DNA from: a virus
Reading direction: 5' to 3' (one strand)
DNA length: 64,000 nt
Virus record (IMG/VR): IMGVR_UViG_3300030447_000342
Shown here: piece by piece, positions 22,613-51,199 of the stretch
How the letters are laid out: the number at the start of each line of letters is the position of its first letter
Position numbering within the stretch: the first letter of the stretch is position 1
Notes under the pieces: generated by a model
Seen by the model: the letters and a program-made list of their open reading frames with translations, nothing else
Database searches by the model: none
Told to the model about the DNA's origin: nothing
Program-made: the position numbers and the translations under genes

Positions 22613-22738
22613 CTATCGTGATGCGGGTGAGGATTTGCACCCCACATGACCTAACAGAGCATCGGTCTCCATCGCTTTTCTGGGCGACATCCGAACTGTA
22701 ATTTGTAAGCGTCTACCTATTCCGCCACCGCATCATTA

Positions 22739-27159: not shown

Positions 27160-27597
27160 TCACATTTCTGCTCTGACTCGCATAAGGATTTTACCAAGGC
27201 GATTTTCTCCAACGCCATCACAGATGCCCCAGATGCGGTCGCCCCAAGTATTACCTTCAATGAGCTCGGCATCCTTGGTCGCAGCAAGCTTGTCTGCCAA
27301 ATCAGGATTCTGTGAGAACTTTGCCTTGCAAATCTCATACATAACGGTATCTTTGACCGCCTCCCAGTCACCACGGAGCTTAACCCTACGCCCAAGCCTC
27401 TTTGCCTCTGACGGATTCAGACGGCAAAACTCAGTCATACGTTCTGGGCATTTAGCCGCTTGAAACGCTGCCTCGTTATTCTCAAAACACATTCCGTTGT
27501 AGGTAACTGGTGCCGAGTAGAAGTTACTCAGAAAATAATACTCGCCTCTAAACTCGCTGATACTTGCTCCCATACTGTCAGTCAACCTCCCACGCAT
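27160..27597 (-). CDS. NADAR-domain protein (YbiA/DUF1768 family; ADP-ribose/NAD-related N-glycosidase fold)
   Basis: YFLSNFYSAPVTYNGMCFENNEAAFQAAK..RLNPSEAKRLGRRVKLRGDWEAVKDTVMYEICKAKFSQNPDLADKLAAT..ELIEGNTWGDRIWG is the NADAR signature. Probable start MRGRL at 27597. Confidence 0.65.
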   Translation of the reverse strand: MRGRLTDSMGASISEFRGEYYFLSNFYSAPVTYNGMCFENNEAAFQAAKCPERMTEFCRLNPSEAKRLGRRVKLRGDWEAVKDTVMYEICKAKFSQNPDLADKLAATKDAELIEGNTWGDRIWGICDGVGENRLGKILMRVRAEM

Positions 27598-28201
27598 AAT
27601 CGAAATGTCTCCGGTACGAATTTCCTTTACGAACGTCGCCCTTATAGCGTCTGATTTTTCTATTGGAATATGTTTTCCAAAACGTCTGCCTGTTTGAGTT
27701 CTTGGGGTACTGGATGTAACTTCCGACCGGCTGATAAACGCCGTCTCTCCAACCCCAGTCTGTATAGCCGATACCTGACTTATATCCATAGGTCATAATA
27801 CGCATCAGCTTTTCTTTCTTCTGTTTGCGCATCTTGCGCCGATATGCTCTCCCGGTTTTTCTCGGTTCACACAGTTTACCATGCGGCTTGTCCGCCTCAA
27901 AAGCATCGCTACAATAACCACTGATAAAAAATTCAGTCTGGACTTTATCGCAACCGCAGTATTCAAGCTGCGGTTCGTAGCCACCCTCTCTTGCAACCCT
28001 GACCCTATGCTCAATGCCTTCACAAATCGGGCATTCATCGCAAGTGAACTTTCTTCCATAGAACTCAAGCATGATTGACCTCCTGCTGAAAAGTCTTACT
28101 GCTTCGTCAAGATGTACTCCGTATTTGCTGTTTGGATGGTAATTGTGTCTTCGCCGTTTCCCCACGGAGTAAAATCCAAAACAGTAGATGTATGTAGGCA
28201 A
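27578..28201 (-). CDS. Hypothetical Cys- and basic-rich protein
   Basis: 207 aa with CDECPICEG..CGCDK cysteines. Confidence 0.4.
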   Translation of the reverse strand: MPTYIYCFGFYSVGKRRRHNYHPNSKYGVHLDEAVRLFSRRSIMLEFYGRKFTCDECPICEGIEHRVRVAREGGYEPQLEYCGCDKVQTEFFISGYCSDAFEADKPHGKLCEPRKTGRAYRRKMRKQKKEKLMRIMTYGYKSGIGYTDWGWRDGVYQPVGSYIQYPKNSNRQTFWKTYSNRKIRRYKGDVRKGNSYRRHFDYAWEVD

Positions 28202-29701: not shown

Positions 29702-30787
29702 TCAGTCCTTTTCTGCGAGAAGGAAGTCAGGATTGATGACCTTGAAGCTGATGTTGCTCTGGACATTGCGCATAACTACACCTTCTCGTTTTTGTTCCTT
29801 ACGAACCACTGATTTTCCCTTGGAATACTCGACCAGCTCAGCGATAGTTTCGGGCAGGGTCTTGTCCTCCTCAACAATCGGAACAGTCTTAATTCCATAC
29901 GGCTCAAGCAGTTTCTTGATTTCTGCCGTGCCACACTTGTGGTCTGGATAAATCAGGTTGAAGGCAAACAAGTCGTACCCACTAATGTGGTACTTGTTGC
30001 CCTGAATCTGGTTGCCGCAAATCTCACCTTGTAAAACGATGGTTTCATAATCACCGACAAGGTGTTTCAGCACATCTTCGATGTGAAGCTGGCGTGCAAT
30101 CGTCCAGTATGAGCTGTTGTCAGGCGTGCCAAGATAGATATTTCGGCTGCAAACGCCAAACTCATACTTGCGTTTGGAAACTTTGCGCAGGTAATACGTC
30201 GCTGACTGCCCATCAACTTTCTCTGTGACAGAGAACTTCGTTCCCTTGTTACGCTCCATCTCAAAGAGCGTCGTAAGGTTTTGAATGCGGGTCTCATCCG
30301 TCTTGGCAATCCAGTCGGGGAATCCTCCCTTGCGCTTGGGCTTCATAAACAGTTTGCGATACCACTTGAATCGCATCAGGAAGCGAGCGATTGCGCTCTG
30401 CGGTTTTTGCGGTTGCTTCGTCAAGAGCTGTGCTTCTTGCTGCGCTTCTGGGTCATACTTCTTAATGCCCAAAGCGTCTGTCACATCGGCGCCAAGAATG
30501 GCAGGAGTACCATTCGGAAGGATTGACAGTGGGAGAACCAAACCCTGACTGACCTGACCACGCAGCTTAATGGTGCGGACTCTGAACTTTCTGTCTCTCA
30601 AGAACTCGAACTCTGGGCGCTCTGGGACGATAGAATCGACCTCAATGTAAACGATATGCTCTCCTGTATGGAACTCGCCTTTCTGAACCACACATTCCCA
30701 ACCATCGACCTGCGCAACTTCAATGCGGTCAGCTCCTGCAATCGGGCGAAGAGATGCAATCTCACGGATTGTTGCCAAATGTCGCAT
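29702..30787 (-). CDS. ATP-dependent RNA ligase (Rnl family, DraRnl-like with a tRNA-binding-like N-terminal domain)
   Basis: N-terminus LATIREIASLRPIAGADRIEVAQVDGWECVVQKGEF. Nucleotidyltransferase motif I KVDGQSATYY (KxDG). Downstream ligase motifs. Confidence 0.6.
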   Translation of the reverse strand: MRHLATIREIASLRPIAGADRIEVAQVDGWECVVQKGEFHTGEHIVYIEVDSIVPERPEFEFLRDRKFRVRTIKLRGQVSQGLVLPLSILPNGTPAILGADVTDALGIKKYDPEAQQEAQLLTKQPQKPQSAIARFLMRFKWYRKLFMKPKRKGGFPDWIAKTDETRIQNLTTLFEMERNKGTKFSVTEKVDGQSATYYLRKVSKRKYEFGVCSRNIYLGTPDNSSYWTIARQLHIEDVLKHLVGDYETIVLQGEICGNQIQGNKYHISGYDLFAFNLIYPDHKCGTAEIKKLLEPYGIKTVPIVEEDKTLPETIAELVEYSKGKSVVRKEQKREGVVMRNVQSNISFKVINPDFLLAEKD

Positions 30788-33016: not shown

Positions 33017-34291
33017 TCAGCCGTAGCTGACCTCGTCTTTGTCTGTTCGGATAGAAATAAACACCGGGAACTGTAAACTCCCAGCACCGGTGTTTTTGTC
33101 ATATGATATTTCCTTGTATTTTACCTCGCACAACCGTCCGGGCATTTCATCTTTAGCCGCCCAAAAAGCTGTACGCTGCTCATCGGAAAAGCCAGACCCA
33201 ACATTTACTTCGTTGCCTTTATAGTCCAGCACAAATGCGCCCAGCGTTCCTGCAAGCCTGCCGCTTCCTTCTTCACAACGCAAGATATGCAAATCCATAG
33301 TGTAGAAGCGTTTGACTTTGAGAATTCCGTTGTGACGCTTTCGCTTATATGGAACATCAAAGTTGACCATTAAGCCCTCTTTGTCCTCCCGAACCATTTG
33401 CTCTAATAGCTCATCGATTTTTGTCTGGTCTTTACCGTGATATAAAACAGGGAGGATGTTGACTCGACCATCTTGCGGAATGAAGCGATGAAGCTGGTCT
33501 AAGAAAGACCGGCGATACCCATAGCCGCCCTCGCTTACACCAGCATCGAACTCTTCTGTCGTAAGCACATCAAAAACAGTGTAGCAAACTGCCGTTTTAT
33601 CAGTGTCTTCTGAGTTGATAATGCCCGTTGCCTTGCGGAATGCCTCATTGTCAGACAGTGCTCCTTTATCGCGTAAGGTAAGTTCACCGTCAAAAACATA
33701 GCTATCGTTATCGTCGATTTTGAGCGCGTCCAGAATGTGCCCGAGCCCTTCGTAGGGGACTCCGCTTCTTGCGAACAGTTGCCCTTTGTAGTATGTTGCT
33801 CTGACACCATTCAGTTTTTGAGTGAGCCAAAACTCTGTGCCGTCCTTGACTGGGTATTTGTCGATTGGATATGCCTGCTGAACCTCCCATTCGGGAATCA
33901 GTCCGGGGATAACCTTGTTCACAGTTTTCGCTGTGACACCCAACCGAAGTGTCTTTGACAGAAGTTCAATGTAAAACTCGGATGACTCCGGGTCAGTTAA
34001 ACACTGCACGAAGACCCGCACTTGATATACAGTTGCTGCGTCCAATGCTTTTCGCTTTGCCAACACCTCACAAATTTCGAAGATGTCGGTCATTGTGATT
34101 GTAATTGCTGGGTCATACTCGACAGGCGTTCGCAGTGTTTGTTCCGAAATCTTGTACGTTAGCATTGGATTCAAAGCGTAGTACAAAATCTTACGAAAAT
34201 TCTCAACATCTTTGAAGGCTTGCAAGACCTGCATTTTACTAATCGCGCCGCTTGCGTTCTGCAAACAGCGGACGATTGCTATTTCTTCCAT
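33017..34291 (-). CDS. ATP-dependent polynucleotide ligase (DNA/RNA ligase nucleotidyltransferase superfamily)
   Basis: Motif I variant KLNGVRATYY, motif III FDGELTL, motif IV EGLMVNF, motif V LKVK. Confidence 0.6.
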   Translation of the reverse strand: MEEIAIVRCLQNASGAISKMQVLQAFKDVENFRKILYYALNPMLTYKISEQTLRTPVEYDPAITITMTDIFEICEVLAKRKALDAATVYQVRVFVQCLTDPESSEFYIELLSKTLRLGVTAKTVNKVIPGLIPEWEVQQAYPIDKYPVKDGTEFWLTQKLNGVRATYYKGQLFARSGVPYEGLGHILDALKIDDNDSYVFDGELTLRDKGALSDNEAFRKATGIINSEDTDKTAVCYTVFDVLTTEEFDAGVSEGGYGYRRSFLDQLHRFIPQDGRVNILPVLYHGKDQTKIDELLEQMVREDKEGLMVNFDVPYKRKRHNGILKVKRFYTMDLHILRCEEGSGRLAGTLGAFVLDYKGNEVNVGSGFSDEQRTAFWAAKDEMPGRLCEVKYKEISYDKNTGAGSLQFPVFISIRTDKDEVSYG

Positions 34292-34300
34292 ACAATCACC

Positions 34301-35047
34301 TTACGGCTGTGAGCCGTAGGCTGGCATCGGATTGAGCTTGTGCAGGTTCTGCGTATGCTTCTTTGCAATTACTTTGTCGATGTCTTCATCCCCACTACTA
34401 CCGTGCATGATGTAGTTGTCGAGCTGCATATAGGTAAAGCCCAGATTGTCTTCGTCTGTCTTACCGCAAAGACCGTCCGATGGAGTCTTGTCTACCAGCT
34501 CACGAGGAATGGGGAGTTCGTAGCCAATCTGACGAACCTCATGCACCATGATGTTTGCGAGTGGGCTGAAGTCACCAGCGCTGTCACCGAACTTTGTGGA
34601 GTATCCAACATAATCCTCGGAGCGATTGCAGGTGTTTGCCACCCGACCTCCGCGAGCCAATGACTGCGCGACCATATAGAGTGTCGCCATACGCAGCCTT
34701 GGAGGGAGATTGACCGCTGCCTGATTGCTTACTCCAGACGGCATTGCTCTGCCGACTGCATCAACCATCTTGCTGTATGCGCCGCCAATGTCAACTGTAA
34801 TACTTGCAATGCCAAGCGTATCGACCAGCAGCTTGGAGTCTGCGATATCTTTCTGCCGACCATTCGGCATCAGCACACCGATAACCCGCTCTGTGCCAAG
34901 GGCTTCAACACAAAGTGCTGCGACCACGCTGCTATCTTTGCCACCGGAAATGCCGATAACAGCACAACAGTCGTTGCCGTTTGCAGCGAAATATTCTCGA
35001 ATCCACTGCACGATTTCATCTTTTGTTCTTTTCGGATTTGCCAGCAT
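34301..35047 (-). CDS. nadE: NAD+ synthetase, NadE-type PP-loop ATPase
   Basis: PP-loop GISGGKDSS. LRMATLYMVAQ. YSTKFGDSAGDFSPLANIMVHEVRQIGYELPIPRELVDKTPSDGL aligns with NadE TKYGDGGADLLPL..K.P.ADL. Confidence 0.75.
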   Translation of the reverse strand: MLANPKRTKDEIVQWIREYFAANGNDCCAVIGISGGKDSSVVAALCVEALGTERVIGVLMPNGRQKDIADSKLLVDTLGIASITVDIGGAYSKMVDAVGRAMPSGVSNQAAVNLPPRLRMATLYMVAQSLARGGRVANTCNRSEDYVGYSTKFGDSAGDFSPLANIMVHEVRQIGYELPIPRELVDKTPSDGLCGKTDEDNLGFTYMQLDNYIMHGSSGDEDIDKVIAKKHTQNLHKLNPMPAYGSQP

Positions 35048-35048
35048 A

Positions 35049-35501
35049 CTATACCTCTTTTCTCCACAACTCTACTGTGTACTTATCAGACAGTTCCTTT
35101 TGGATAAGACCCAAAATCACATTCCAGTCCCCACCGCCAAGACCGCATCCAATCTTAAACGGCATGGCAATTGTTTCTTCTGCAGGTACGGTCAACTTAA
35201 TCCGTTTTAAGCAGCTCTGAAATGCGGTGTAATCTGTGTACAGTTTCCCATCATATCCGTAGTTGCTCTGCGCAAACATATTGACAACGACTTTACCGTC
35301 GTTAGCTTGAACGAACTGCGTCCGACCGAACGCATTGCGCTCTTCGTTGCAGAAGCCAACATAGGCGTTATAGACTTCTGGATACTTGGCTCGAACCTGC
35401 TTCGCCACACCACTACCCATTCTCGCCTGACAGTTAACCTGATGGCAAATATATTTGGCGTGGGTCTGAAACAAATCTCCATCAATAATTTGTACCGGCA
35501 T
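35049..35501 (-). CDS. Macro-domain protein (ADP-ribose binding/processing)
   Basis: VQIIDGDLF..HAKYICHQVNCQARMGSGVAKQV..GCGLGGGDW resembles the Macro fold (GDIT..D.IVNAAN..GGGV). Confidence 0.7.
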   Translation of the reverse strand: MPVQIIDGDLFQTHAKYICHQVNCQARMGSGVAKQVRAKYPEVYNAYVGFCNEERNAFGRTQFVQANDGKVVVNMFAQSNYGYDGKLYTDYTAFQSCLKRIKLTVPAEETIAMPFKIGCGLGGGDWNVILGLIQKELSDKYTVELWRKEV

Positions 35502-36991
35502 CAGAACGTTCCTCCGTGAAGATTCTTACGAACCTCATCCAGCGTGAACTGCTTTTCAAACTTTCCATCTCTAAACACGGTGCGCAGTTCATTGCTGTCC
35601 TGTGCTTCAGCCCAAGTAAGACCATCAACGTAATCGTAGCCGTCACCAGTTTTGACTACGCGGCAGCAACCACGCTGAGACTTCTTAAAATGTCCTGTGT
35701 CTGTCTTGGGATTCTTGAAAATCATAATCGGTTTGCCGTCGGCATCTTCTGCATATGTCGCTTTAACTGCAATGCCGAATGTATCCCTCGTGTACGGATT
35801 GTACTGTTTGCTTCCATCGCTCTCGATTGTCTCTAAGCACTCCATTGAGAATGAACCGACACCGAGCGAAACATTATTGATTGCAAAGCCGTTTTTCTCC
35901 AAAAGAGAATAGATTTGCTCACAGCGCTGCGGAGTAATGCTGTCTCCGTAAATTGCCTTGACGTGCGGATTCAGCACCTTGTACCCCTTGCTATTTACTG
36001 TGCCGCCAAAGATGTCCCACAGACGATATACGGTCTCAGTGATTACACTAACAGGGTCACCGCTGTCGCCGCGAATTGAGATGAAGCCATCGTGATTTAG
36101 GATGTCATCTTTGAGCTGAGGGAGGACTTTTTCAACAAGATTCCAATAGTCATAGCTGTCGCTAACCATTGAGAAACTTTGATGCGGATACACCTCACAA
36201 AGAAGTCGTCGAATCTGTGTCACCTCATCACCGTCAACAGCAAAGTTGGAACACATTACGCTGTGTTCTGTTGAGAGCGCACCATATGCGACAGGTTCCT
36301 TGCTACAATCACAGTTGTAATTATGCTCAAGCCACAAAATCGCAGGCACTGTCGCCGTATTCAAGAAGCTCAGGCAGAAAGCCGCTGCGCTCTTTGTTGC
36401 ACTTTCAACGCTCTCTTGCCCGCGCATAGAAAAATCGCCAAGGAGTCTCGCACGAACCACACTGTCATCGCAAGTGCGTTCTGCATACTCATTGACGATT
36501 TTACGATATCTGTACCCAACCTCAGCGGAGACTTGCGTATGCCACATTGTGCAAGAGAGCATCGTCTCGATGGTGTTGACCAGCCATACGAAGTTAGGGT
36601 GTGTATTTGAGATTTCAATTTGTGGGACTTTGATATTGGTTCTCGTTCCTTCGGGAACAGCACGAATCTGTAACGGAAGATAGCCGAGGTCGTGCAATTC
36701 ACGAAGCCGTTTCTCTCCAACGCCTTTTGTTCCGATTGTTGCCCCAAGAACTCTGGTGTACTCCTTGAGTACACTATCAAACGGGACATTAAAGAAGTGG
36801 TCGTTGAATGCCTCAATAAGATATTCCTGAATGAATGCCTGAAGTCCAAACAGTGTAACCTTATCGGTATCACCGAGGCGACTCATGCGTGGCGTGTAGT
36901 AGGAGACCATTTTGGTCAAGCCCTTCGGATACTGTTCAGCGTGACAAGTCTTATAGAAGTCCAGACACAGGAGCGGATTATATGTAATCAT
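35501..36991 (-). CDS. Nicotinamide phosphoribosyltransferase family protein (NadV/NAMPT-like; a Namat-like ADPR-PP-dependent enzyme cannot be excluded)
   Basis: 496 aa. The LDFYKTCH N-terminal motif and overall architecture match the NAMPT family. Co-localised with the Prs-like gene. Confidence 0.8.
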   Translation of the reverse strand: MITYNPLLCLDFYKTCHAEQYPKGLTKMVSYYTPRMSRLGDTDKVTLFGLQAFIQEYLIEAFNDHFFNVPFDSVLKEYTRVLGATIGTKGVGEKRLRELHDLGYLPLQIRAVPEGTRTNIKVPQIEISNTHPNFVWLVNTIETMLSCTMWHTQVSAEVGYRYRKIVNEYAERTCDDSVVRARLLGDFSMRGQESVESATKSAAAFCLSFLNTATVPAILWLEHNYNCDCSKEPVAYGALSTEHSVMCSNFAVDGDEVTQIRRLLCEVYPHQSFSMVSDSYDYWNLVEKVLPQLKDDILNHDGFISIRGDSGDPVSVITETVYRLWDIFGGTVNSKGYKVLNPHVKAIYGDSITPQRCEQIYSLLEKNGFAINNVSLGVGSFSMECLETIESDGSKQYNPYTRDTFGIAVKATYAEDADGKPIMIFKNPKTDTGHFKKSQRGCCRVVKTGDGYDYVDGLTWAEAQDSNELRTVFRDGKFEKQFTLDEVRKNLHGGTF

Positions 36992-37212
36992 TCAGCTTTT
37001 CCTCTTTTCTTTAGTTTTTCACCATATTTCGCAAAAAACACAGCAAACGCGAACGGTGCTGCAACAATCCAGAAAACACCTACCATAATATACCCGTCTT
37101 CGAACCCATTATATTTGTTATATGGTTCTACGATAACGTACAAGCGGCAAAGTGCGAATGTTACAATCGCACCAATGCAGAGGTACAGGAGCACTAAAAG
37201 GACTGTCATCAT
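36988..37212 (-). CDS. Hypothetical small membrane protein
   Basis: 74 aa, two TM helices. Confidence 0.35.
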   Translation of the reverse strand: MMTVLLVLLYLCIGAIVTFALCRLYVIVEPYNKYNGFEDGYIMVGVFWIVAAPFAFAVFFAKYGEKLKKRGKAE

Positions 37213-38414
37213 TCCTCTTCACCCGCCTTAAAGTTATAAATCGGCTTGATGATGGCATCAATAGTCACTGTTGGTTCGACATTGTTTACGATATCATCCA
37301 TACCTTTGTATGCCATCGGGCATTCATCGAGCGTGCTTCTTCCAACAGATGTAGTGTAGATACCCTCCATCTGCTTCTTGAACTCAGAAACTGTGAATGT
37401 CTCTTTCGCCGCGCTGCGGCTCATCAAACGCCCAGCTCCATGCGGGGCAGAGAAGTTCCAGTCTTCATTTCCTTTGCCGGTACACAGCAAACTACCGTCT
37501 CTCATGTTGATAGGAATCAGCAGCCGCTCACCAGCTTGTGCAGAGACCGAGCCCTTGCGAAGAATCATATTCTCTACATCGATGTAGTTGTGAATAGTTG
37601 TAAACTGCTCTTCGACATGGAAGCCCATACCCTTAACAATGGTGTCCATCATTGCTTGGCGGTTAAGTTCAGCAAAACGTTGAGCAATTTTCATGTCATG
37701 GATATACTGCTCAAACAATTCTCCCTCAACGTATGCAAGCTGCTTTGGAACTCCCGGCTTCTTCGCCTTCATGCCTTTAAGAACAGATTGGATTTCTTTT
37801 TGTCTTCCAGCCGCTTTTAACTCGTTGACAACCTCCTCGATTTCTTCCTTGGAATACGAGGTTAACGCCTTGAACGCAGCTTCCTGATAGAAGTTAGCAA
37901 TCTCCAGACCAAGGTGTCTACTACCGGAATGCACCACAATATAGATGTGTCCATCATCATCTTTGTTGGCTTCGATGAAATGATTCCCTCCACCAAGCGT
38001 ACCGATGCTTTTATATGCGCGGTCTACATTGACCATCTTTACACAGCACAGTTCCGACAGGTCGATGCTACTTGCATATCTATGAGCTTCTGTGCGAATC
38101 TCGAAACCGGACGGAACTCCTGCACGAATAACTTTGTCCAGCTTCTGCGGTTCGATATGCGTTTCTTTGATACGGATAGTTTCCATGCCGCATCCAATGT
38201 CAACGCCGACAAGGTTCGGGCAAATCTTATCCTTGATGGTCATCGTGGTTCCGATTGTACAACCAGCCCCAGCATGAATGTCTGGCATCATACGGACTTT
38301 GCTTCCCTCGATGTACGGTTGATTCAAAAGATTGATAACCTGAGAGATAGACTCATTATCGACCACGTCGGTAAACACCTTTGCGACGCCAAACTTACCC
38401 TGTAACTCAAGCAT
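37209..38414 (-). CDS. rtcB: RtcB RNA 3'-phosphate/5'-OH ligase
   Basis: MMPDIHAGAGCTIGTT..NLVGVDIGCGM and the HGAGR motif HGAGRLMSR. Confidence 0.85.
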   Translation of the reverse strand: MLELQGKFGVAKVFTDVVDNESISQVINLLNQPYIEGSKVRMMPDIHAGAGCTIGTTMTIKDKICPNLVGVDIGCGMETIRIKETHIEPQKLDKVIRAGVPSGFEIRTEAHRYASSIDLSELCCVKMVNVDRAYKSIGTLGGGNHFIEANKDDDGHIYIVVHSGSRHLGLEIANFYQEAAFKALTSYSKEEIEEVVNELKAAGRQKEIQSVLKGMKAKKPGVPKQLAYVEGELFEQYIHDMKIAQRFAELNRQAMMDTIVKGMGFHVEEQFTTIHNYIDVENMILRKGSVSAQAGERLLIPINMRDGSLLCTGKGNEDWNFSAPHGAGRLMSRSAAKETFTVSEFKKQMEGIYTTSVGRSTLDECPMAYKGMDDIVNNVEPTVTIDAIIKPIYNFKAGEEE

Positions 38415-38433
38415 TTGCCCGCCTCCTTTAAGA

Positions 38434-39222
38434 TTAGATTAGCGAAATCTTTTCGCTGTGTCCGCGATAGATACTGTCTGTGGTAAACACATGGCGGATT
38501 AAGCCATCCGTGAGAACTGTTCCGCTGTGAATTGTGTTTTCACAATGGGTCACATACAAATACACTTCATTCGCGCCAGCCTCTTTTAGTGCCTTAGCTG
38601 TAAAAGTGAATGTGCCACCGCGAGAACAAATATCATCGACAATCAGCACATTTCTATCGGCAACCTTTTCTGGGCTCGTCAGTTCCAGCCGTTCAATTTT
38701 CCCGGTGCGCCAGTCTCTATGCTTGATGCAGAACACATACTCTCTACCAGCTTGCGATGAATATCGTTTTGCTGCTCCCTCATCAGGATAGCACAACAAC
38801 ACATTTTTGTCATCCAACTTGTCCAGAGCTTTCTGGATGTGCGGCTGCGCGTCATATACCTTGACTCTGTCAAGCAATGCTGCTGATACATTCGAGTGAG
38901 GGTCATCGACTAACACGTCGTCAAAATCCAGCGTGTTGATAAACTCCGCAAACCATTTTAGCGTAAACACTTCGTCCGCATTTTTTACTCTATCCATTCT
39001 GGCATTTGGAATGTATGGGAGCAGCAAGCGGAGGCGAACGTCCCGGTCATGGTCGCGGATATGATTTACCAGATACCATAGAAGGATGCACTCCTCATCG
39101 CCGTCATACTTCCATGTGATATTGAAGATGCGAGTCATTGAGCCAAACGGATTATACCTGAAAGAGGTTGTACCATCGGGGAACTTTGTAAACTCGACCT
39201 GCTTGTCGTTGACAAGAATCAT
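38434..39222 (-). CDS. Ribose-phosphate pyrophosphokinase homolog (Prs-like; candidate ADP-ribose pyrophosphokinase Adps)
   Basis: Type I PRTase/PRPP-binding loop NVLIVDDICSRGGT. Prs-like N-domain. Confidence 0.75.
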   Translation of the reverse strand: MILVNDKQVEFTKFPDGTTSFRYNPFGSMTRIFNITWKYDGDEECILLWYLVNHIRDHDRDVRLRLLLPYIPNARMDRVKNADEVFTLKWFAEFINTLDFDDVLVDDPHSNVSAALLDRVKVYDAQPHIQKALDKLDDKNVLLCYPDEGAAKRYSSQAGREYVFCIKHRDWRTGKIERLELTSPEKVADRNVLIVDDICSRGGTFTFTAKALKEAGANEVYLYVTHCENTIHSGTVLTDGLIRHVFTTDSIYRGHSEKISLI

Positions 39223-39779
39223 GCCGTGACCCCCTCGTTCTCGATGTTAATCTGGCACATTTTCATTGCCGACAGTGCAGTCTTGTGACTCTCTGGTGTC
39301 ACGCCAGCGCAGCAGGAAGCATCGACCGTAATCTTAACTTCCGGCATAAACGCCTTGAGCAGCAAGGCATTTGAGATAACACAGATATCGGTACAAAGAC
39401 CGACAAGGACAATTTCTTCTATGCCATCACCAAACGCAACTTCTGGATATAGGCGACCAGCAAGTGCTAATGAACCAAACGTTTTCTTCTCGAAACCATT
39501 CATCTGGTCATCCGCTGGATGCTTGCTCTGAATTGCTGCTTTAACTGAGCTATGAATCTGCCAGCCATTACTTGCAGATATACAGTGTTTTACCGGCAAC
39601 AATCTTCCTTCTTGCGTTTCGAGGTAATCATCAGAATGGGTGTCTTGTGTCCACAAAACTTCCCCATCAAACTCTTCGATTTTCTTGACGACCTTCGGCA
39701 CAATAGCCTGTGCCTCTGGTGTCCCGAGCGTACCATCAATAAAGTCGTTCTGCATATCAACGACAACAAGAACCTTCAT
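39219..39779 (-). CDS. Isochorismatase-family cysteine hydrolase (PncA-like nicotinamidase candidate)
   Basis: VVDMQNDF, the conserved Lys FEKKTFGS, and the catalytic Cys in GLCTDICV. Confidence 0.7.
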   Translation of the reverse strand: MKVLVVVDMQNDFIDGTLGTPEAQAIVPKVVKKIEEFDGEVLWTQDTHSDDYLETQEGRLLPVKHCISASNGWQIHSSVKAAIQSKHPADDQMNGFEKKTFGSLALAGRLYPEVAFGDGIEEIVLVGLCTDICVISNALLLKAFMPEVKITVDASCCAGVTPESHKTALSAMKMCQINIENEGVTA

Positions 39780-39934
39780 TCTTCGCCCTCCGTTTTAAGC
39801 TTGTTCTTAATATTCTTTTCACGCTTACGGTTATAAGCTCGTTTATTTGGAACAATTTGAGTAACGGGGCGAGCACAAGTCCAGAAATTGCGTGCTTTCT
39901 TCGCTTGAAGTTTTCGCCTATTCTTGTCTGTCAT
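39780..39934 (-). CDS. Small highly basic protein (52 aa), translationally coupled; below the ORF-track cutoff
   Basis: MTDKNRRKLQAKKARNFW..KRAYNRKREKNIKNKLKTEGEE. GGAGG RBS 8 nt upstream. Its TGA overlaps the next ATG. Confidence 0.35.
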
Positions 39935-40216: not shown

Positions 40217-40771
40217 TTAGGTCACAATACGTCTCCCATCCATGCTCAGGAGCTGTGCAAACGCCTCGTCTTCCTCTTGCTGCTTCTCCACCTCATCATT
40301 CTGGATAGCCACAAACACGACACTGCACATACCGATGAGGTCATCGATGGAGAAATCCTCTTCCTCAATGGTTTCGTCTTCGTCTGGTTCCTCTTCAAGA
40401 GAGTCGAGGAAGTCGTCATCTGCATCGGCGTACTCTTCATCTTCCTCTTCTTCGTCGTCCCATGCGCCGTAGTCATCGCCCCATTCGAGGACATCCTCTT
40501 TGTAGTCTTCGAAGTCATCGTCATCGAGACCATCATAATCAAAGGCGCTGTTACGACGGTAGTAATAGTACCCGCTGGGGAGGTTGCCAAGGAAGTCTCG
40601 GATGTCCCTCCAGCCGTAGTCGGCGATAGCATCGCGGATATCTTCTTCGACGCTGTCATCGTAATCATCATCGTCATAGATGTCCTCACAGACATCGCAG
40701 TCAAAGTCGTTGCAAAAGTCTTTCAGTTCACACCACTCAGTGATATTGTCAATAAATTCATTCCTTGTCAT
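40217..40771 (-). CDS. Extremely acidic (D/E/Y-rich) protein; candidate DNA mimic or anti-restriction protein
   Basis: 184 aa with long runs such as DDDDYDD, EEEEDEEYADADDD and EEEPDEDETIEEED. Confidence 0.5.
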   Translation of the reverse strand: MTRNEFIDNITEWCELKDFCNDFDCDVCEDIYDDDDYDDSVEEDIRDAIADYGWRDIRDFLGNLPSGYYYYRRNSAFDYDGLDDDDFEDYKEDVLEWGDDYGAWDDEEEEDEEYADADDDFLDSLEEEPDEDETIEEEDFSIDDLIGMCSVVFVAIQNDEVEKQQEEDEAFAQLLSMDGRRIVT

Positions 40772-40774: not shown

Positions 40775-41257
40775 TTAATCCTCCATTTCCACTATTTCAG
40801 TTGAGACCCTAACGAGCTTGGACAATGCTTTTTCTGTCAGGAACGCATATTGTACGCCAAGCTGCGTACTGGTTAACTCTTTTCGCATTGCTGTAGCCGC
40901 CACGTCAATCGACACATTGCTATTTCTCAGCTTTGTAAATTTACTTTTCAAATTACTTCCTCCGCCAGCCATATATCCGATTACCAAATCGACATTTGGA
41001 GCGGTGCCGAGCCTTGAAGAAACCACGAACCGAAGCCAGTCCTCAGACCTTTCATCAAACTCCAGAACAGAGAGTCCATCCAAGTCTGTGAGCAGATATG
41101 TTTGGACATATCCCACCCGAGAGTTTTTAACTGCCATCGGCAAGGCATCGAAATAATTTTTGGCAAGATAAAAGCCGCATCCGAAATCTCGGTGCGGCTT
41201 ACACTTGTTCAGGGTTGGTACATCGAAATCTGCCGGAGTACCGTGATACAGATACAT
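40775..41257 (-). CDS. Hypothetical protein with an N-terminal L-Y-H-G-T motif
   Basis: MYLYHGTPADF: an HGT motif of the type seen in H-Y-E-class ADP-ribosyltransferases and Tpt1/KptA. Otherwise unassigned. Confidence 0.4.
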   Translation of the reverse strand: MYLYHGTPADFDVPTLNKCKPHRDFGCGFYLAKNYFDALPMAVKNSRVGYVQTYLLTDLDGLSVLEFDERSEDWLRFVVSSRLGTAPNVDLVIGYMAGGGSNLKSKFTKLRNSNVSIDVAATAMRKELTSTQLGVQYAFLTEKALSKLVRVSTEIVEMED

Positions 41258-41278: not shown

Positions 41279-41355
41279 TGGTCTGGGTGAGAGGACTCGA
41301 ACCCCCGACATCTTGCTCCCAAAGCAAGCGCACTACCATCTGTGCTACACCCAGA
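41279..41355 (-). tRNA. tRNA-Pro (anticodon UGG), CCA encoded
   Basis: Cloverleaf parsed by hand. Anticodon loop TTTGGGA closed by CTTGC/GCAAG. T-loop TTCGAGT. 3' CCA. Confidence 0.8.
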
Positions 41356-41383
41356 TATAATGGTTTTGTTTCCGAACACACAC

Positions 41384-41444
41384 GCACTACTGATGGGTTC
41401 GAACCATCCTCACCATAAGCATCGCCATCAATGCTTAGTAGTGC
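41384..41444 (-). ncRNA. Aberrant 61-nt tRNA-like element: acceptor stem and T-arm present, only one internal arm, no CCA
   Basis: GCACTAC..AGCA[ttgatggcga]TGCT..GATGG TTCGAAC CCATC..GTAGTGC. Too short for D-arm plus anticodon arm. Confidence 0.3.
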
Positions 41445-41482
41445 GTGCCGGGGCAGAAAGGAAAACGGATATGTCAGTCCGT

Positions 41483-41558
41483 TGGAGCTGGTGACAGGGC
41501 TCGAACCCGCAACCCAGTGAGTACAAATCACTTGCGCTACCAATTACGCTACACCAGC
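41483..41558 (-). tRNA. tRNA-Thr (anticodon UGU), CCA encoded
   Basis: Anticodon loop TTTGTAC closed by AGTGA/TCACT. Acceptor GCTGGTG/CACCAGC. 3' CCA. Confidence 0.8.
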
Positions 41559-41602
41559 GTGCACCCTCGTCTTTCCGAGGTGTCAGCTTTTAGCTAAAAG
41601 GC

Positions 41603-41671
41603 TGCTGATGACTGGACTTGAACCAGCGGCTCGCACTTCCGGTGCTGCTCTACCAACTGAGCTACATCAGC
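41603..41671 (-). ncRNA. Aberrant tRNA-like element with a truncated anticodon arm (4-bp stem, 5-nt loop), 1-nt variable region, no CCA
   Basis: Normal acceptor GCTGATG/CATCAGC, D-arm GCTC AGTTGGTA GAGC and T-arm GCTGG TTCAAGT CCAGT. The anticodon region GCAC cggaa GTGC cannot form a 7-nt loop. Confidence 0.3.
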
Positions 41672-41785
41672 ATAGATACGCCCTGCGCCCGTAGGACTCC
41701 GTGTGCACCCGGCTGTGTCTCTTACAGAGATAACAGTTGAGTGATGAACTAACCGTACAAACGTAAGCATGACCAACAGAGCAGA

Positions 41786-41861
41786 TGGAGCTGGAACTCG
41801 GAGTCGAACCGAGAACCCACGCTGTACGAAAGCGTTACTCTACCAGTTGAGCTATTCCAGC
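41786..41861 (-). tRNA. tRNA-Thr (anticodon CGU), CCA encoded
   Basis: ACGCT TTCGTAC AGCGT anticodon arm. T-arm CTCGG TTCGACT CCGAG. 3' TCCA. Confidence 0.8.
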
Positions 41862-42020
41862 ATAGATGCCATCCTGAAACTATGGCGATGTCATTAACAC
41901 CACCAATACAAACTCACTATGATGGCAGTTTTGATAGCGTGAAAGGAGAATCATGGATAAATCATCGTGGCACAAGGGATTGCAGGGATAGAAAACAAGC
42001 TCTAATGCCGAAGATGATTT

Positions 42021-42095
42021 TGGCAGGGGCAGTAGGATTTGAACCTACGAATAACGGAGTCAAAGTCCGCTGTGTTACCGCTTCACCATACCCCT
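42021..42095 (-). tRNA. tRNA-Gln (anticodon UUG), CCA encoded
   Basis: GCGGA CTTTGAC TCCGT anticodon arm. D-loop AAGCGGTAA. Acceptor AGGGGTA/TGCCCCT. Confidence 0.75.
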
Positions 42096-42213
42096 GTATC
42101 TGCAGGCTCATGCAGCGGCGTCCCGCCAAACCAACCTGTAACCGACTTCCAGAGCAGGCTCTGACGTGTCGTAAAGGCATTTCCTTTAACGCATAATTTA
42201 ATGGTTTCTTACT

Positions 42214-42290
42214 TGGAGCGGCGTACCAGACTCGAACTGGCACCACCGGTTTGGAAGACCGGAGTGCTAACCGTTGAACACCAACACCGC
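42214..42290 (-). tRNA. tRNA-Gly (anticodon UCC), CCA encoded
   Basis: CCGGT CTTCCAA ACCGG anticodon arm. 3' GCTCCA. Confidence 0.8.
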
Positions 42291-42476
42291 ATGGTCGGCT
42301 TCTCGCTTAGATTGTCACACGCTACCGGCAACTACGCTCCGAAAAGTCGTAGCCCCTATTCCGTCAGGTCAAACCGGTCTTGACGCATCAAGACAAGCGC
42401 AGTTTTCAGCAAGCATTTTCATTCTTTGTGAGGTAAGCCGATAATCTCTCACATCAGTTGGGAGCTACCCAACAAC

Positions 42477-42552
42477 TGGCAGGGGTGAATGGATTCGAAC
42501 CACCATCTGACGGTTTTGGAGACCGCTATGTTAGCCATTGCACCACACCCCT
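42477..42552 (-). tRNA. tRNA-Trp (anticodon CCA), CCA encoded
   Basis: GCGGT CTCCAAA ACCGT anticodon arm. Acceptor AGGGGTG/CACCCCT. Confidence 0.8.
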
Positions 42553-42642
42553 TGGCGGAGTGGACAGGACTTGAACCTGCACATCCTTTCGGATTACTCA
42601 CGGTTTAGCAAACCGCTGCCTTACCGTTAGGCTTACCACTCC
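42553..42642 (-). tRNA. tRNA-Ser (anticodon GCU), long variable arm, CCA encoded
   Basis: GCGGT TTGCTAA ACCGT anticodon arm. Long extra arm. Directly abuts tRNA-Trp. Its 5' end overlaps the stop region of the downstream CDS by ~10 nt. Confidence 0.8.
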
Positions 42643-43314
42643 ATCGGGATTACTTTATTATACAGAGCAATAAACTGCTCATTGACCTGCTTGTCCACAT
42701 GATAATGTCCAAAGAACCACCGCTTGAATGTGAGGTCGGAACAAACCCTATCTAAAAAGCTGACCATCGGGTCGTTCTCGTACCAGCTTGCGAGCAGAGT
42801 CTGAACACTCCTTGGCGCACAATGTGTAATTACATAGTCAACTCGCCAATGATTTTGTTCGAGCGCTGCAATCGCTCGTTCCATTTCTTCTCTGGACGGC
42901 ATTTCCTCTTTCCACCATGAGATATGTTCCACGCGATACTCTTTATCAACAGAGCGAGCACCGCCCATGCAGAAGATTTTCTTTCCATCAATCGTGAGCA
43001 CCTGCCCTCTGTCCAGATGATAGATGTCAGGAGCGATTTCACGCACCTTTCCGCCAAATTTGTCAATCAGCGGGAACTGGTAGAGCATATCAAAGTTCTC
43101 ATGGTTGCCATCAATCCAAAGTGTCGTGAAGTTTTTCGCTGTCAGCCAGTCTTGCCACCACATCTCTCGATGCGAACCGTCCCAGCAGAGTCCAAAATCG
43201 CCACATATGATTACGAAATCATTCTTCGTCAATTCCTTTTGTTGTGGGAACTTTGTTGTATTAAGCTTGGCAATATCAATGTTTGCGTGTGTATCTCCAG
43301 TGACATAAATCATG
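42633..43314 (-). CDS. Calcineurin-like metallophosphoesterase
   Basis: MIYVTGDTHAN, ICGDFG and GNHEN metal-binding motifs. AAAGGAA RBS before the Met at 43314. Confidence 0.65.
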
Positions 43315-43579
43315 CTCAGTTCCTTTCTCATCTGCAGTCCATATGTATATTCTGTTCTGGTCTCTTCGTTTATCTCCTGTAGCGACGGGATTTAGATGAG
43401 CTGAAAGCGAGTTCAAATCCCAAGCGGCGATGATGAAATCATTGGGAGACAATGGGTTCGACAGTCGCTCATCGGATGGAGATGACAAGACATCCCGAAT
43501 AGTTTTAATGAGCTGTACAGCGAGCTTAGGCGCCTTCGCAGCAGGCTGCGGGCGGGGAATTGTGCTGTCCAGCAAAGTG

Positions 43580-43932: not shown

Positions 43933-45069
43933 TTACCGCAGGTCGTCCTTCATCATGCGGATTACATCCACATTCATTTTCTTGTTGATGTAAGCTACAA
44001 TTGCGTCGATGGTCTCTTTTTCGACCATACGATAATAGCTATGCAGACCATACATTACCTGTACATCATTCCGCTCCCAAGCGACACCATTGTTCTTATC
44101 TGTGATGTAATTGTACAGCATTGACTGGAACTGCTTTTTCTTTTTATGACCGACCGTAATCTCGTTGTCCTTATTCAGCATAACGCCAAGATTCCAGTTG
44201 CGCCCCGCTGATGAACCATACCGAGTCTTGCTTGCATTGATTGTGAATGGGGCACCAAAACTGCTCAATGTACTTACTACCAGCTCTTCAACAGAGCGAA
44301 CATCAAAATCATACTTGGATGAAATAATGAAGTCATCCGCATATCTGGTATAAATGAAGCTCTGTTTTTCAAAATTACGGAGCGTATTCGACAGTTTGAA
44401 ATCAACCGGAATCATCATTACGTTTGTGATGAGCGGTGAAATTGGGGTGCCCTGCGGTAGCCCACCATTTAAGAACGCTAACGACATAGCTGTCCGCAAT
44501 GCTGCCTCGCCCTGTGGCTCTTTTACAATCTCACTAAAAGGAAAAACCATCGAGAACATTGAGATGGCATAATCCAATGTTGTGCTGCCAAAAAAGTCGT
44601 GCAGGTCAAGCTTTGCGAACCATTTGCTGCTGTTCTTCTGGTGACGCTTAACCGCATCGACTGTACTCCGCTTCTTTACATAAGCAAACGCGGCAGTATG
44701 ATAGAGTGCATGGAAATCATCCTCGAAAATCGTTTTGAGTCTTCTCAAGGCGTCCATCAGCTCTGCCTTTGGCGCATCGATTCTACGAAGACCACCAGAT
44801 TTCTTTGGGATGTAAAAGGTCTCATACAACTCGCTCCGTTCCTTTGCACGAAGCTCTGCTGTATCGTTATTAAATCGCACGAGTTTTCCGATTAAAGCTT
44901 CAACACCAATCTTGCTGGAAAAATGTTCACTGACATTTTCGACCTCGTATGTTCTTGTGTTTGCAATATTGGCATTGACAACCGGAGGTGTCTGATAGTT
45001 TTGAAACAGGTACTCTTCCAGTGTCATCTGATGATAAATCGGTGACTGCCTAACAGTGATATAGACCAT
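43933..45069 (-). CDS. Reverse transcriptase. Retron/group-II-like RT motifs, no maturase or endonuclease domains, and no DGR-type SQ motif.
   Basis: FYIPKKSGGLRRIDAP (RT motifs 1-2). AYVKKRSTVDAVKRH (region 2a, NAxxH-like). LDLHDFFGS (motif A). LPQGTPISPLITN (motif B', QGxxxSP). YTRYADDFIISS (motif C, YADD). FTINASKTRYG and NLGVML (motifs 6-7). AAGGAGG RBS. Confidence 0.8.
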   Translation of the reverse strand: MVYITVRQSPIYHQMTLEEYLFQNYQTPPVVNANIANTRTYEVENVSEHFSSKIGVEALIGKLVRFNNDTAELRAKERSELYETFYIPKKSGGLRRIDAPKAELMDALRRLKTIFEDDFHALYHTAAFAYVKKRSTVDAVKRHQKNSSKWFAKLDLHDFFGSTTLDYAISMFSMVFPFSEIVKEPQGEAALRTAMSLAFLNGGLPQGTPISPLITNVMMIPVDFKLSNTLRNFEKQSFIYTRYADDFIISSKYDFDVRSVEELVVSTLSSFGAPFTINASKTRYGSSAGRNWNLGVMLNKDNEITVGHKKKKQFQSMLYNYITDKNNGVAWERNDVQVMYGLHSYYRMVEKETIDAIVAYINKKMNVDVIRMMKDDLR

Positions 45070-46288: not shown

Positions 46289-46966
46289 TTAAAACGCATC
46301 CAGCAGCGGCTGGAATGCGTCACAAATAATCAGCTTATTCAGCCCCTTGCCCCTGATGTACTTGACGAAGTTGCTCACACCCAGAGCACAAATCACTCTG
46401 ACCGTAGTGACAACACCAAGCGTAATGCCGCAAGCTGAGACTGGAGTTTCTTCCGCCGCCTCATCGTGTGTAAAATTCATGGAGTTGAGGAGGTCTTTCT
46501 TCATCTTGTAGTCAGACCAATCAGCAGCATAGTGCTGACCAGCCTCCAGCAGAGTTCTGAAATCAAACATCGCCTTTACATACGGATTGTCGAAGTGTTT
46601 CTCAACAATCTTTTTTCTCAGCTCGATGTTATCAACGCACAAGAACACATAGCCGGATAACTGCTGCCCGTTCCACCCATCCTTGTAAAGCTTCAGGTCA
46701 TCCTTAACATCAGGATTGATGTCGAAAAGAATATCCGCCAATGCCTCGACCTTAGAGCGCCCAATGTCCTGCTGACGGAAAATCTGATTTGCCAGATTGT
46801 GCGGACTTACTGTGTCCATATCCCACAGTGCGATGTTCGTGAGTCCTAAGCGAACCAGTAGCTCCGCAACCGTCGCGCCGACAGAACCACACCCGACGAT
46901 ATGGATTCTACAATCAACCTTCTCGGGCTGGAAATATTCATAGCTCTTTGACAGGTCAATAGCCAT
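46289..46966 (-). CDS. E1-like ThiF/MoeB-family adenylyltransferase
   Basis: Rossmann motif RIHIVGCGSVGATVAELLVRLG. LWDMDTVSPHNLANQ (D.D.V..SNLNRQ-like). Confidence 0.7.
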   Translation of the reverse strand: MAIDLSKSYEYFQPEKVDCRIHIVGCGSVGATVAELLVRLGLTNIALWDMDTVSPHNLANQIFRQQDIGRSKVEALADILFDINPDVKDDLKLYKDGWNGQQLSGYVFLCVDNIELRKKIVEKHFDNPYVKAMFDFRTLLEAGQHYAADWSDYKMKKDLLNSMNFTHDEAAEETPVSACGITLGVVTTVRVICALGVSNFVKYIRGKGLNKLIICDAFQPLLDAF

Positions 46967-49403: not shown

Positions 49404-49488
49404 TGGTGGGGAATATCGGATTTGAACCGATACGGCATACGCCAACAGAACTTAAATCTGTTGTGTCTTCCAATTCCACCAATTCCCC
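49404..49488 (-). tRNA. tRNA-Leu (anticodon UAA), long variable arm, CCA encoded
   Basis: ACAGA TTTAAGT TCTGT anticodon arm. Extra arm GGCGTATGCCGTATC. Confidence 0.8.
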
Positions 49489-49530
49489 ATGAAAAGAGCC
49501 GCCCCATGAAGGGCGGCTCTAATCTAAAAC

Positions 49531-49758
49531 TTAGGCGTTGTCCGCCTTAACGACATTCAGCAGGAAGCACTTCTCGGTAATGCCGAACTGCTGGAAGGTC
49601 TTATCGAGGTCGCCGGGGTTCAGAGAAGAACCATCGAGGTGCATGACACCACGAGTGTAATCAACGCCGTTTGCCTCAAGGCAGGAGCGCAGGGTGGTAT
49701 TCTCATCGATGATGACAGCCTCACGCTTAACATTGTTGCCAACAGTAACCTTAATCAT
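49531..49758 (-). CDS. Hypothetical small protein
   Basis: 75-aa ORF between tRNA genes. Confidence 0.35.
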   Translation of the reverse strand: MIKVTVGNNVKREAVIIDENTTLRSCLEANGVDYTRGVMHLDGSSLNPGDLDKTFQQFGITEKCFLLNVVKADNA

Positions 49759-49831
49759 TATGTATTCTCCTTTTATTCGTTTTTTGTTTTTTGGGTGGTG
49801 GGGCGGCTATGCCGCCCCGTTGCAGTGTCTC

Positions 49832-50230: not shown

Positions 50231-50404
50231 GTGTATGTACTCCTTGATTTCAAATGTACCCCTATTAGTTCGTCTTACGACTATCCGCCCACACCACGAG
50301 GAGGTTGGAGCCATTGTGGACATAAAACCACTGAAGCAACTGCCCCAGTGGTTATGGTTTTATCTTGCACCACTTCCGTGGTGCTGATACTTTTGATACA
50401 CAGA

Positions 50405-51064: not shown

Positions 51065-51092
51065 ATGTTACCTCCGTCCATAATCATTTAGT

Positions 51093-51182: not shown

Positions 51183-51199
51183 AAATAAAAAGAGACGGG

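Follow-up and report, generated by a model that had tools for sequence, protein, structure and literature searches.

Phage-encoded restoration of nicotinamide adenine dinucleotide (NAD+) is known in several forms. In NAD+ reconstitution pathway 1 (NARP1), described for phage SPbetaL1, E. coli phage Bas63 and, as NrsAB, Vibrio phage ICP1, a single operon encodes Adps, which resembles phosphoribosyl pyrophosphate (PRPP) synthetases (Prs, PRPS), and Namat, a transferase resembling nicotinamide phosphoribosyltransferase (NAMPT, NadV). The SPbetaL1 Adps is the enzyme demonstrated to pyrophosphorylate ADP-ribose (ADPR), and NARP1 of the kind characterised so far overcomes the defence systems Thoeris, DSR1, DSR2, SIR2-HerA and SEFIR. 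In 15% of NARP1 operons there is also a Macro-domain protein, Adpp, which converts ADPR-1''-phosphate, the product of RES-domain NADases, to ADPR; this three-gene system is called NARP1-AP (bioRxiv 10.64898/2026.01.28.702374). NARP2 (Nampt and Nmnat, Vibrio phage KVP40) and NARP3 (PnuC-like and NadR-like proteins, Bas30) likewise restore NAD+, the former requiring a Nudix-fused Nmnat and a PRPP-preferring Nampt, the latter a transporter and a NadR-like enzyme. The system considered here is an operon on the minus strand, at positions 34301-39779, of a 64,000-nucleotide stretch of viral DNA, IMG/VR record IMGVR_UViG_3300030447_000342 (the window). It encodes homologues of Adps, Namat and Adpp together with a nicotinamidase (PncA) and an NAD synthetase (NadE), and it probably rebuilds NAD+ from the cleavage products in the manner of NARP1, via deamidated intermediates.

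The window is a segment of a large gut-phage genome in which the minus strand carries almost everything; besides 13 tRNAs and many genes for RNA repair it has a DNA polymerase, a primase and a DnaB-like helicase. Six genes that the original prediction had placed in the cluster, all on the minus strand, were each confirmed from the list of open reading frames (ORFs) and by Pfam, and two small ORFs that it had not mentioned were added, of 74 amino acids (aa) at 36988-37212 and of 52 aa at 39776-39934. In the order of transcription, and including the gene that follows, the features are:

39776-39934, minus strand: basic ORF, 52 aa, from the ORF list, overlapping the PncA start by 4 bp
39219-39779, minus strand: PncA-like nicotinamidase, 186 aa (Pfam Isochorismatase, 1.9e-25)
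38434-39222, minus strand: Adps (PRPS-like), 262 aa (Pfam Pribosyltran, 5e-8; Pribosyl_synth, 9e-5)
37209-38414, minus strand: RtcB RNA ligase, 401 aa (Pfam RtcB, 2e-65)
36988-37212, minus strand: ORF of 74 aa with two hydrophobic segments, from the ORF list
35501-36991, minus strand: Namat-family transferase, 496 aa (Pfam NAPRTase, 1.2e-23; NAMPT_N, 7.8e-9)
35049-35501, minus strand: Macro-domain protein, Adpp-like, 150 aa (Pfam PF01661, 2.3e-5)
34301-35047, minus strand: NH3-dependent NadE, 248 aa (Pfam NAD_synthase, 2.4e-51)
33017-34291, minus strand: ATP-dependent DNA ligase, 424 aa (Pfam DNA_ligase_A_M, 1.7e-12; DNA_ligase_OB_2, 3.3e-12)

Neighbouring frames overlap by 4 bp (PncA/Adps, RtcB/74-aa ORF, 74-aa ORF/transferase) or 1 bp (transferase/Macro), or stand 1 bp (Macro/NadE), 9 bp (NadE/DNA ligase) or 19 bp (Adps/RtcB) apart, so that the string looks like one translationally coupled transcription unit. 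The Adps and transferase genes lie 1.4 kb apart in it, with RtcB and the 74-aa ORF between them, and are immediate neighbours in more distant relatives. Since the matching gene set was found again in ~90 unique viral and ~50 bacterial loci, the arrangement is not a product of chance.

The original prediction of a phage cluster for NAD+ reconstitution and salvage is borne out by homology to characterised Adps, Namat and Adpp. It had left open whether the core pair was Adps with Namat or Prs with NadV, and alignment against both sets settles this in favour of Adps and Namat, the NARP1 pair; 'NadV plus Prs', to which it had referred as a phage pathway, is not a described one, NARP2 being Nampt with Nmnat. 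The PRPS-like protein is 38% identical to the SPbetaL1 Adps (E 2e-46), Prs enzymes in the PDB reaching at best 9e-14 (~1e-13), and it stays under the cut-off of all 11 NCBIfam Prs models that it matched. It is without the PRPS N-terminal unit and C-terminal helices, like the ICP1 and SPbetaL1 Adps, and in an alignment with these and E. coli Prs it ends where the known Adps end, the alpha11-alpha12 regulatory module being missing. Equivalents of all seven ICP1 ligand contacts mapped from the structure paper (F18, R87, H121, D161, K185, D212 and D213) are present, most of which are common to Prs too and do not discriminate by themselves. The PP loop reads DDICSRGGTFTF. The protein is predicted to make ADPR pyrophosphate (ADPR-PP) and AMP from ADPR and ATP. 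E. coli Prs and human NAMPT served as reference and outgroup, no conclusion resting on them alone, and the Prs sequence used agrees with the PDB alignment.

An irregularity in the Adps gene was seen among close relatives. In loci L014-L023 the flanking genes are 96-100% identical to those of the window (except PncA in L018-L020, 73%), yet Adps is just 83-84% identical. The differences fall mostly in N-terminal-domain residues ~23-145 and include an 8-aa indel, the C-terminal half being near-identical; the N-terminal stretch thus forms a local patch that is mosaic or hypervariable.

The transferase matches structures 9W5X and 9W5W, which are the Namat of Bacillus phage SPbetaL1 (depositors' paper), with E 7e-121 and 45% pairwise identity, and the canonical bacterial and animal NAMPT/NadV structures with E 6e-49 to 2e-41. 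Because the matches to Namat and Adps far exceed those to NAMPT and Prs, a pair of the Adps and Namat kind is supported, rather than Prs with NadV. With positions taken from homology to 9W5W, the catalytic core of the SPbetaL1 enzyme (F189, R192, R306, D13', Y15') and its clamp residues (R40, F392, TRD) are common to the window protein, which retains D11, Y13, R38, F187, R190, R307, F381 and T401-R402-D403. Namats are marked by a clamp-helix motif, GS-X-Φ-X-Φ-X-Φ-TRD with an aromatic X, and by the stacking residue R40 in the clamp loop. The window protein keeps R38, GSF381 and TRD (401-403), and 14 extra residues break the motif between them (GSFSMECLETIESDGSKQYNPYTRD); the length of this insertion varies within the sub-lineage to which the window belongs.

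These features bear on a reading in which the PRPS-like protein would be a genuine PRPP synthetase and the transferase a nicotinate phosphoribosyltransferase making nicotinic acid mononucleotide (NaMN), with host NadD and phage NadE finishing the synthesis. Such pairs are classically annotated in this way (prs-nadV under NrtR, PMC2330246), the transferase passes the NCBIfam model NF006629, named nicotinate phosphoribosyltransferase, Namat makes nicotinamide mononucleotide from PRPP in vitro, and the clamp helix is remodelled in the window sub-lineage. Yet the PRPS-like protein groups with verified Adps, is like them at all ligand-contact positions and fails every NCBIfam Prs cut-off, and the SPbetaL1 Adps gave no measurable product in a PRPP-synthetase assay (preprint). 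The adenine clamp (F392/F381, R40/R38, TRD) is kept, and is fully canonical in members of the same clade from Clostridium and the phage Phass-1. Nor would a PRPP-based route be self-contained, as NadD was not found in the window ORFs scanned. We therefore judge this reading very unlikely.

The scan covered ~50 ORFs of the window, nearly all of those with at least 120 aa. Among these there was no Nmnat, NadD, Nudix, PnuC or NadR protein, no match to CTP_transf_like or NUDIX, and no nicotinate phosphoribosyltransferase of the PncB type. The absence of the first five from the scanned set argues against NARP2 and NARP3, and the transferase groups with Namat rather than with the PRPP-preferring Nampt of NARP2.

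The pyridine pocket is where the window enzyme departs from NARP1. In the nicotinamide pocket set of SPbetaL1 Namat (F189, R192, D215, A242, R306, D13', Y15'), D215 and A242 are not kept: G185, A213 and S240 of the window protein stand at SPbetaL1 H187, D215 and A242. In the SPbetaL1 structure Asp215 hydrogen-bonds nicotinamide and Ala242 lies in the nicotinamide pocket, and the D215A substitution lowers NAD+ formation 8.1-fold (structure paper). In human NAMPT, according to PMC4919578 and PMC7096376, the equivalent Asp219 defines specificity, D219S switches substrate affinity (Khan et al. 2006, as cited there), and H191 and A244 are inhibitor-pocket residues. Every characterised Namat checked (SPbetaL1, ICP1 NrsB, Gary and PDB 9KE8) has His, Asp and Ala at 187/215/242 (H-D-A). 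The window transferase is thus of another type (x-A/S-S), with a residue other than His, then Ala or Ser, then Ser at these positions. A sub-clade has a natural Ser at 215, recalling NAMPT D219S, in which the equivalent Asp is replaced and the pyridine-base preference changed; the human variant is engineered and PRPP-dependent, whereas here the replacement is natural, is joined by two further pocket changes and sits on an ADPR-PP-type scaffold.

The distribution of the two types was examined in loci from IMG/VR, GenBank phages, species-representative bacterial genomes and a protein library at 50% identity. Transferases were aligned to SPbetaL1 Namat and typed by residues 187/215/242. Among the best 150 of the 50%-identity representatives, 92 were H-D-A and ~50 of the altered type. 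For the gene content, each distinct transferase sequence was counted once, and only where its locus extended 3.5 kb or more to either side. The 93 viral loci with Ala or Ser at 215 and Ser at 242 contained PncA in 92 cases, Adps in 92, NadE in 91, all three in 90 and a Macro gene in 66. The 56 viral loci with Asp or Glu at 215 and Ala at 242 contained Adps in 55 cases and a Macro gene in eight (14%, in line with the published 15%), and neither PncA nor NadE in any, so that none had all three. The original prediction had counted NadE, PncA and Macro as additions to a toolkit. The genes are indeed present; since PncA, Adps and NadE occur together in 90 of the 93 altered-type loci and PncA or NadE in none of the 56 classical ones, PncA and NadE seem instead to belong to the core of a variant pathway.

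A neighbour-joining tree united all altered-type transferases in a single deep clade, whose sister group holds all D-type Namats and from which the Phass-1 transferase (37% identical to the window protein) is the first to branch. When 28 and 69 representatives below 85% identity were compared, only seven of 491 columns were fully disjoint between the clades (SPbetaL1 184, 187, 215, 239, 240, 242 and 304), all of them within the segments bearing the pocket residues F189/R192, D215, A242 and R306. Adps from the two kinds of locus served as a control: none of its 280 columns was disjoint and its ligand contacts were identical. In members from Clostridium and Phass-1 the altered pocket occurs alongside a canonical clamp (GSYTYQYNTRD; GAYTYQYVTRD in Phass-1). 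This canonical clamp, together with the unchanged Adps, points to a change in the pyridine base rather than in the ADPR-PP donor. We also considered whether the association with PncA and NadE was an accident of one phage group, and rejected this, since it survives 37% transferase identity, changes of gene order and the move to bacterial chromosomes. The order PncA-Adps-transferase-(Macro)-NadE is kept in relatives of the window Adps (60-100% identity), bar L024, where no transferase homologue was detected. More widely the order shifts and the cluster stays: PncA leads in the window, closes the cluster in L084 and L004, and is the second gene in Clostridium.

Phass-1 (L002, OQ749652, 8459-12897) is a TAG-recoded ('code 15') human-gut phage. 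Its genes run nicotinamidase-Adps-transferase, then a small unidentified ORF and NadE, right downstream of a large tRNA array, a layout that mirrors that of the window at the transferase identity given above. A further peculiarity of the family is length. Many of the 50%-identity Namat-family representatives P0121-P0270 have 550-1100 aa, and their match to the window protein breaks near ~318-320, right after the R307/D309 active-site strand; P0189 gives a weak LAGLIDADG match. These long proteins probably hold inteins at one conserved site.

The companion enzymes are of the expected kinds. The best solved relative of PncA is the Pyrococcus horikoshii pyrazinamidase/nicotinamidase 1ILW (E 7e-13). 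Across 169 unique homologues taken from these loci there is no variation at D8, at the nucleophile C133 or at D46/H48/H65, which bind the metal; the catalytic Lys is K86 (aligned to P. horikoshii K94), in a stretch where the homologues align poorly. The predicted reaction is nicotinamide + H2O to nicotinic acid + NH3. NadE scores 168 bits with TIGR00552 (cut-off 63.65), has P. horikoshii NadE 2E18 as its best PDB match (4e-37) and carries SGGKDS at residue 34, each position of SGGxDS being kept in 162 or more of 164 unique homologues. It is predicted to convert nicotinic acid adenine dinucleotide (NaAD), ATP and NH3 to NAD+, AMP and pyrophosphate (PPi). The Macro protein, encoded directly downstream of the transferase within the NARP1 core neighbourhood, matches Adpp of Vibrio phage Gary over its full length (28% identity, E 3e-16; sequence from Table S1 of the preprint). 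Among PDB relatives DarG macro domains score better, and yeast Poa1p 6LFQ matches weakly (2e-4). It is best read as an Adpp-like ADPR-1''-phosphate phosphatase feeding Adps, with a role as a DarG-like de-ADP-ribosylase as the alternative.

Put together, the predicted activities would form the following route. A host NADase would split NAD+ into ADPR and nicotinamide, or, if of the RES type, yield ADPR-1''-phosphate in place of ADPR, which the Macro protein would convert to ADPR when needed. Adps would convert ADPR with ATP to ADPR-PP and AMP, and PncA would deamidate nicotinamide to nicotinic acid and NH3. The transferase, its amide-binding Asp lost and a Ser gained in the pyridine pocket, is predicted to join nicotinic acid to ADPR-PP, giving NaAD and PPi, and NadE would amidate NaAD at the cost of ATP. 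All of these steps would be phage-encoded, and the ammonia released by PncA would be the substrate of NadE. The closed route would sum to ADPR + nicotinamide + 2 ATP to NAD+, the amide nitrogen being released and then re-used.

Compared with NARP1, the proposed route differs in the three pocket residues (His187 to Gly, Asp215 to Ala, Ala242 to Ser), in the clamp-helix insertion, in the splitting of the core genes by RtcB and the 74-aa ORF, and in the PncA and NadE companions. Like NARP1-AP of Vibrio phage Gary (Adps-Adpp-Namat), the window operon includes a small Poa1p/DarG-like Macro gene. That gene lies between the core genes in Gary and after the transferase here, and the Gary operon, with its H-D-A Namat, is without PncA or NadE. 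The Preiss-Handler pathway (PncA, PncB, NadD, NadE) likewise starts with a nicotinamidase, ends with an NH3-dependent NAD synthetase and has NaAD as its penultimate compound. Unlike in that pathway, Adps and the Namat-family enzyme would stand in for PncB and NadD, which were not found in the ORFs scanned, and ADPR would be recycled through ADPR-PP joining rather than rebuilt from PRPP and ATP.

A more orthodox account keeps NARP1-AP as described, with a Namat that uses nicotinamide, and has PncA and NadE boost a separate Preiss-Handler salvage in the host (nicotinamide to nicotinic acid, then by host PncB and NadD to NaAD and on to NAD+). The homology to Adps, Namat and Adpp is strong, the D215A Namat is still partly active with nicotinamide, and PncA and NadE open and close a pathway for which every host has the enzymes in between. 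What this account leaves unexplained is why 215, 242, 187 and four neighbours should be the sole columns that fully discriminate the clades, and why PncA and NadE should be confined as they are to one type of locus. A co-expressed nicotinamidase would, moreover, compete for the nicotinamide of Namat and starve an enzyme that needs it, which argues for the deamidated route. We consider the orthodox account unlikely.

The operon has a counterpart in bacteria. The altered pocket was present in all of the best 80 bacterial matches, and PncA, Adps and NadE in nearly all; these are mostly metagenome-assembled genomes of Clostridia, some of them probably mis-binned phage contigs. Cultured species of Clostridium, among them C. 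intestinale DSM 6191, C. beijerinckii, C. sartagoforme and C. malenominatum, have Adps-PncA-transferase-NadE clusters on large chromosomal contigs. The cluster of C. intestinale DSM 6191 is followed by a regulator of the NrtR type (NUDIX + NrtR_WHD) and flanked by housekeeping genes (IscS-like aminotransferase, ThiI, pseudouridine synthase, HisRS). NrtR represses NAD genes and responds to ADPR (Rodionov et al. 2008, PMC2330246), and an NrtR-like gene adjoins the cluster in 44 of 80 bacterial loci and three of 212 viral ones. The 2008 survey lists prs-nadV under NrtR, that is, a Prs paralogue and a NadV-like gene by an ADPR-responsive Nudix-type regulator as in the bacterial relatives here, though without pncA or nadE and not in Clostridium, for which it gives nrtR-pncA-pncB-nadD-nadE; the five-gene arrangement seen here, adps-pncA-namat*-nadE-nrtR, is absent from it (PMC2330246). 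The chromosomal cluster thus appears to be an undescribed member of the NrtR regulon. Such clusters lie in bacterial contigs L224-L292 (e.g. L289, 5636-10126), from Clostridium, Ruminococcus and relatives.

Since the matching four genes sit by NrtR in Clostridia, the phage module is probably a captured Clostridia operon that has lost its regulator. The copy in Dysosmobacter segnis, 76% identical and with methylase and PAPS-reductase-like neighbours, may be a prophage. This hints, with low confidence, at Oscillospiraceae or other Clostridia as hosts.

Such an origin invites a reading as a host-derived auxiliary metabolic operon that raises NAD+ for replication generally and is not dedicated to counter-defence. 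The chromosomal setting of the cluster, its link to NrtR and its housekeeping flanks in Clostridium species fit this, as do the many other metabolic and RNA-repair genes of the phage. Against it, H-D-A NARP1 acts only once ADPR is produced and overcomes the five defence systems named above, and NrtR has been dropped from the phage versions. Phage loci are also enriched in the Macro/Adpp-like gene, which has been described as countering RES NADases (66/93 in viral loci of the clade, 9/53 in bacterial loci). On balance a purely metabolic role seems rather unlikely. For the clade as a whole, we give about an even chance to the fullest form of the preferred reading: that altered-type enzymes are nicotinate:ADPR-PP transferases in a closed four-enzyme route, a previously unrecognised, NrtR-controlled housekeeping function of Clostridia that abundant gut phages captured, stripped of its regulator and often combined with an Adpp-like Macro protein to defeat NAD-depleting immunity.

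Several points weigh against this reading. The base specificity of the clade is a prediction from sequence. The clade is monophyletic, so the correlation amounts to essentially one ancient event followed by retention, not to repeated switches. As SPbetaL1 D215A keeps ~1/8 of its activity with nicotinamide, an enzyme with Ala215 could still use that base. In the window sub-lineage, where the insertion breaks the published motif GSxΦxΦxΦTRD, the identity of the second substrate is less sure than for members from Clostridium and Phass-1. NadE is close both to the NaAD-using P. horikoshii 2E18 and to 3FIU, the Francisella NadE that prefers NaMN, so that its substrate may be either. The counter-defence role is extrapolated from NARP1 of the H-D-A type. 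Finally, the model does not yet explain the benefit of the detour; rapid deamidation of nicotinamide by the host, the pull of an ATP-driven last step, or plain inheritance from the host are possibilities.

As to the remainder of the transcription unit, the 52-aa ORF, kept at 85-100% in close relatives L005-L023, is possibly its first gene. A terminator-like hairpin on the minus strand at 40093-40072 is tentatively its upstream boundary; terminator-like sites are mildly enriched (14 against 8.3 expected), and a promoter scan found 12 sites with 11.9 expected, no signal over chance. The 74-aa ORF, translationally coupled to both RtcB and the transferase, had no credible Pfam match; its conservation is 91-99% in most close relatives and falls to 50% in L018 and to 46% in L048 and L049. 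The DNA ligase gene adjoins NadE in close relatives as well and probably shares its transcript while standing outside NAD chemistry; the enzyme uses ATP, not NAD, and would free DNA joining from the NAD+ pool. When 50,697 phage records were searched by megablast with the 5.5-kb region, there was no match; the phage is without a close cultured relative.

The active-site motifs of RtcB, with the metal-binding Cys/His set and the His that is guanylylated, are complete: DIGCG(72), GGNHF(142), HSGSR(162), IHNY(274) and PHGAGR(324). Only relatives with a transferase at least 82% identical have it inside the operon; RtcB and the 74-aa ORF are lineage-specific insertions with no part in NAD chemistry, and RtcB fits with the RNA-repair genes of the phage. 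A link to NAD through the Tpt1/Appr>p/Poa1p branch of tRNA splicing was considered and rejected, because RtcB ligation leaves no 2'-phosphate and in-operon RtcB is restricted to one shallow lineage. RtcB genes also occur upstream of Adps, directly adjoining it or at 1-2 kb, in four H-D-A loci from IMG/VR that are unrelated (L146, L166, L170 and L187), and this neighbourhood with NARP1 may reflect shared early or counter-defence expression.

The RNA/tRNA-repair kit of the window is unusually complete, comprising a CCA-adding enzyme, RlaP, a Thg1-like 3'-5' polymerase, an Rnl-type ligase (PHA02142 OB domain), RtcB and two metallophosphoesterases. Near the NAD operon, on the minus strand, are also a NADAR-domain protein and a DUF3990 protein, which could have further ADP-ribose-related functions; a PDB sequence search with the DUF3990 protein was empty, and its gene adjoins that of a highly acidic protein. 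A composition jump was seen at 58001-60000, with GC 0.56 (background ~0.44-0.49), AT skew -0.24 and positive GC skew. These and further features of the window are:

15331-16677, 16667-17689, 18955-19545, 20145-20969, 29702-30787, 37209-38414, 42633-43331: RNA-repair genes
41279-42642 and 49404-53087: 13 tRNA genes
27160-27789, minus strand: NADAR-domain protein
40775-41257, minus strand: DUF3990 protein
40217-40771: highly acidic protein, 184 aa
10873-11379, 21483-22640, 43933-45069, 46289-46966, 17694-18908, 54639-55451: MazF/PemK-like toxin, large serine recombinase, reverse transcriptase, ThiF-like E1, IscS-like cysteine desulfurase, radical-SAM protein

In the full-text literature searched, in which most subscription journals are absent, no paper linked NARP1, Namat or ADPR-PP with nicotinamidase, NadE, NaAD or nicotinic acid. 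The bacterial NARP1 assayed so far, from Paenibacillus foliorum, has a transferase 72% identical to SPbetaL1 Namat, and nicotinamide was the base used in its assay. The route through nicotinic acid is probably an undescribed variant of NARP1 and NARP1-AP. If the reading is right, nicotinic acid + ADPR-PP to NaAD would be a new activity and the route a new branch of phage NAD+ reconstitution. H-D-A against non-His/A-or-S/S at 187/215/242 would then be a rule separating enzymes that are now all annotated as 'nicotinamide phosphoribosyltransferase', and the chromosomal NrtR-linked cluster of Clostridium, Ruminococcus and relatives would gain a function. The 90%-identity cluster of the window transferase holds 3374 sequences, and at 50% identity the clade comprises at least ~50 clusters. 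Gut viromes thus contain the system commonly, an indication that the depletion of NAD+, and its reversal, form a major conflict between phages and their hosts in the human gut.

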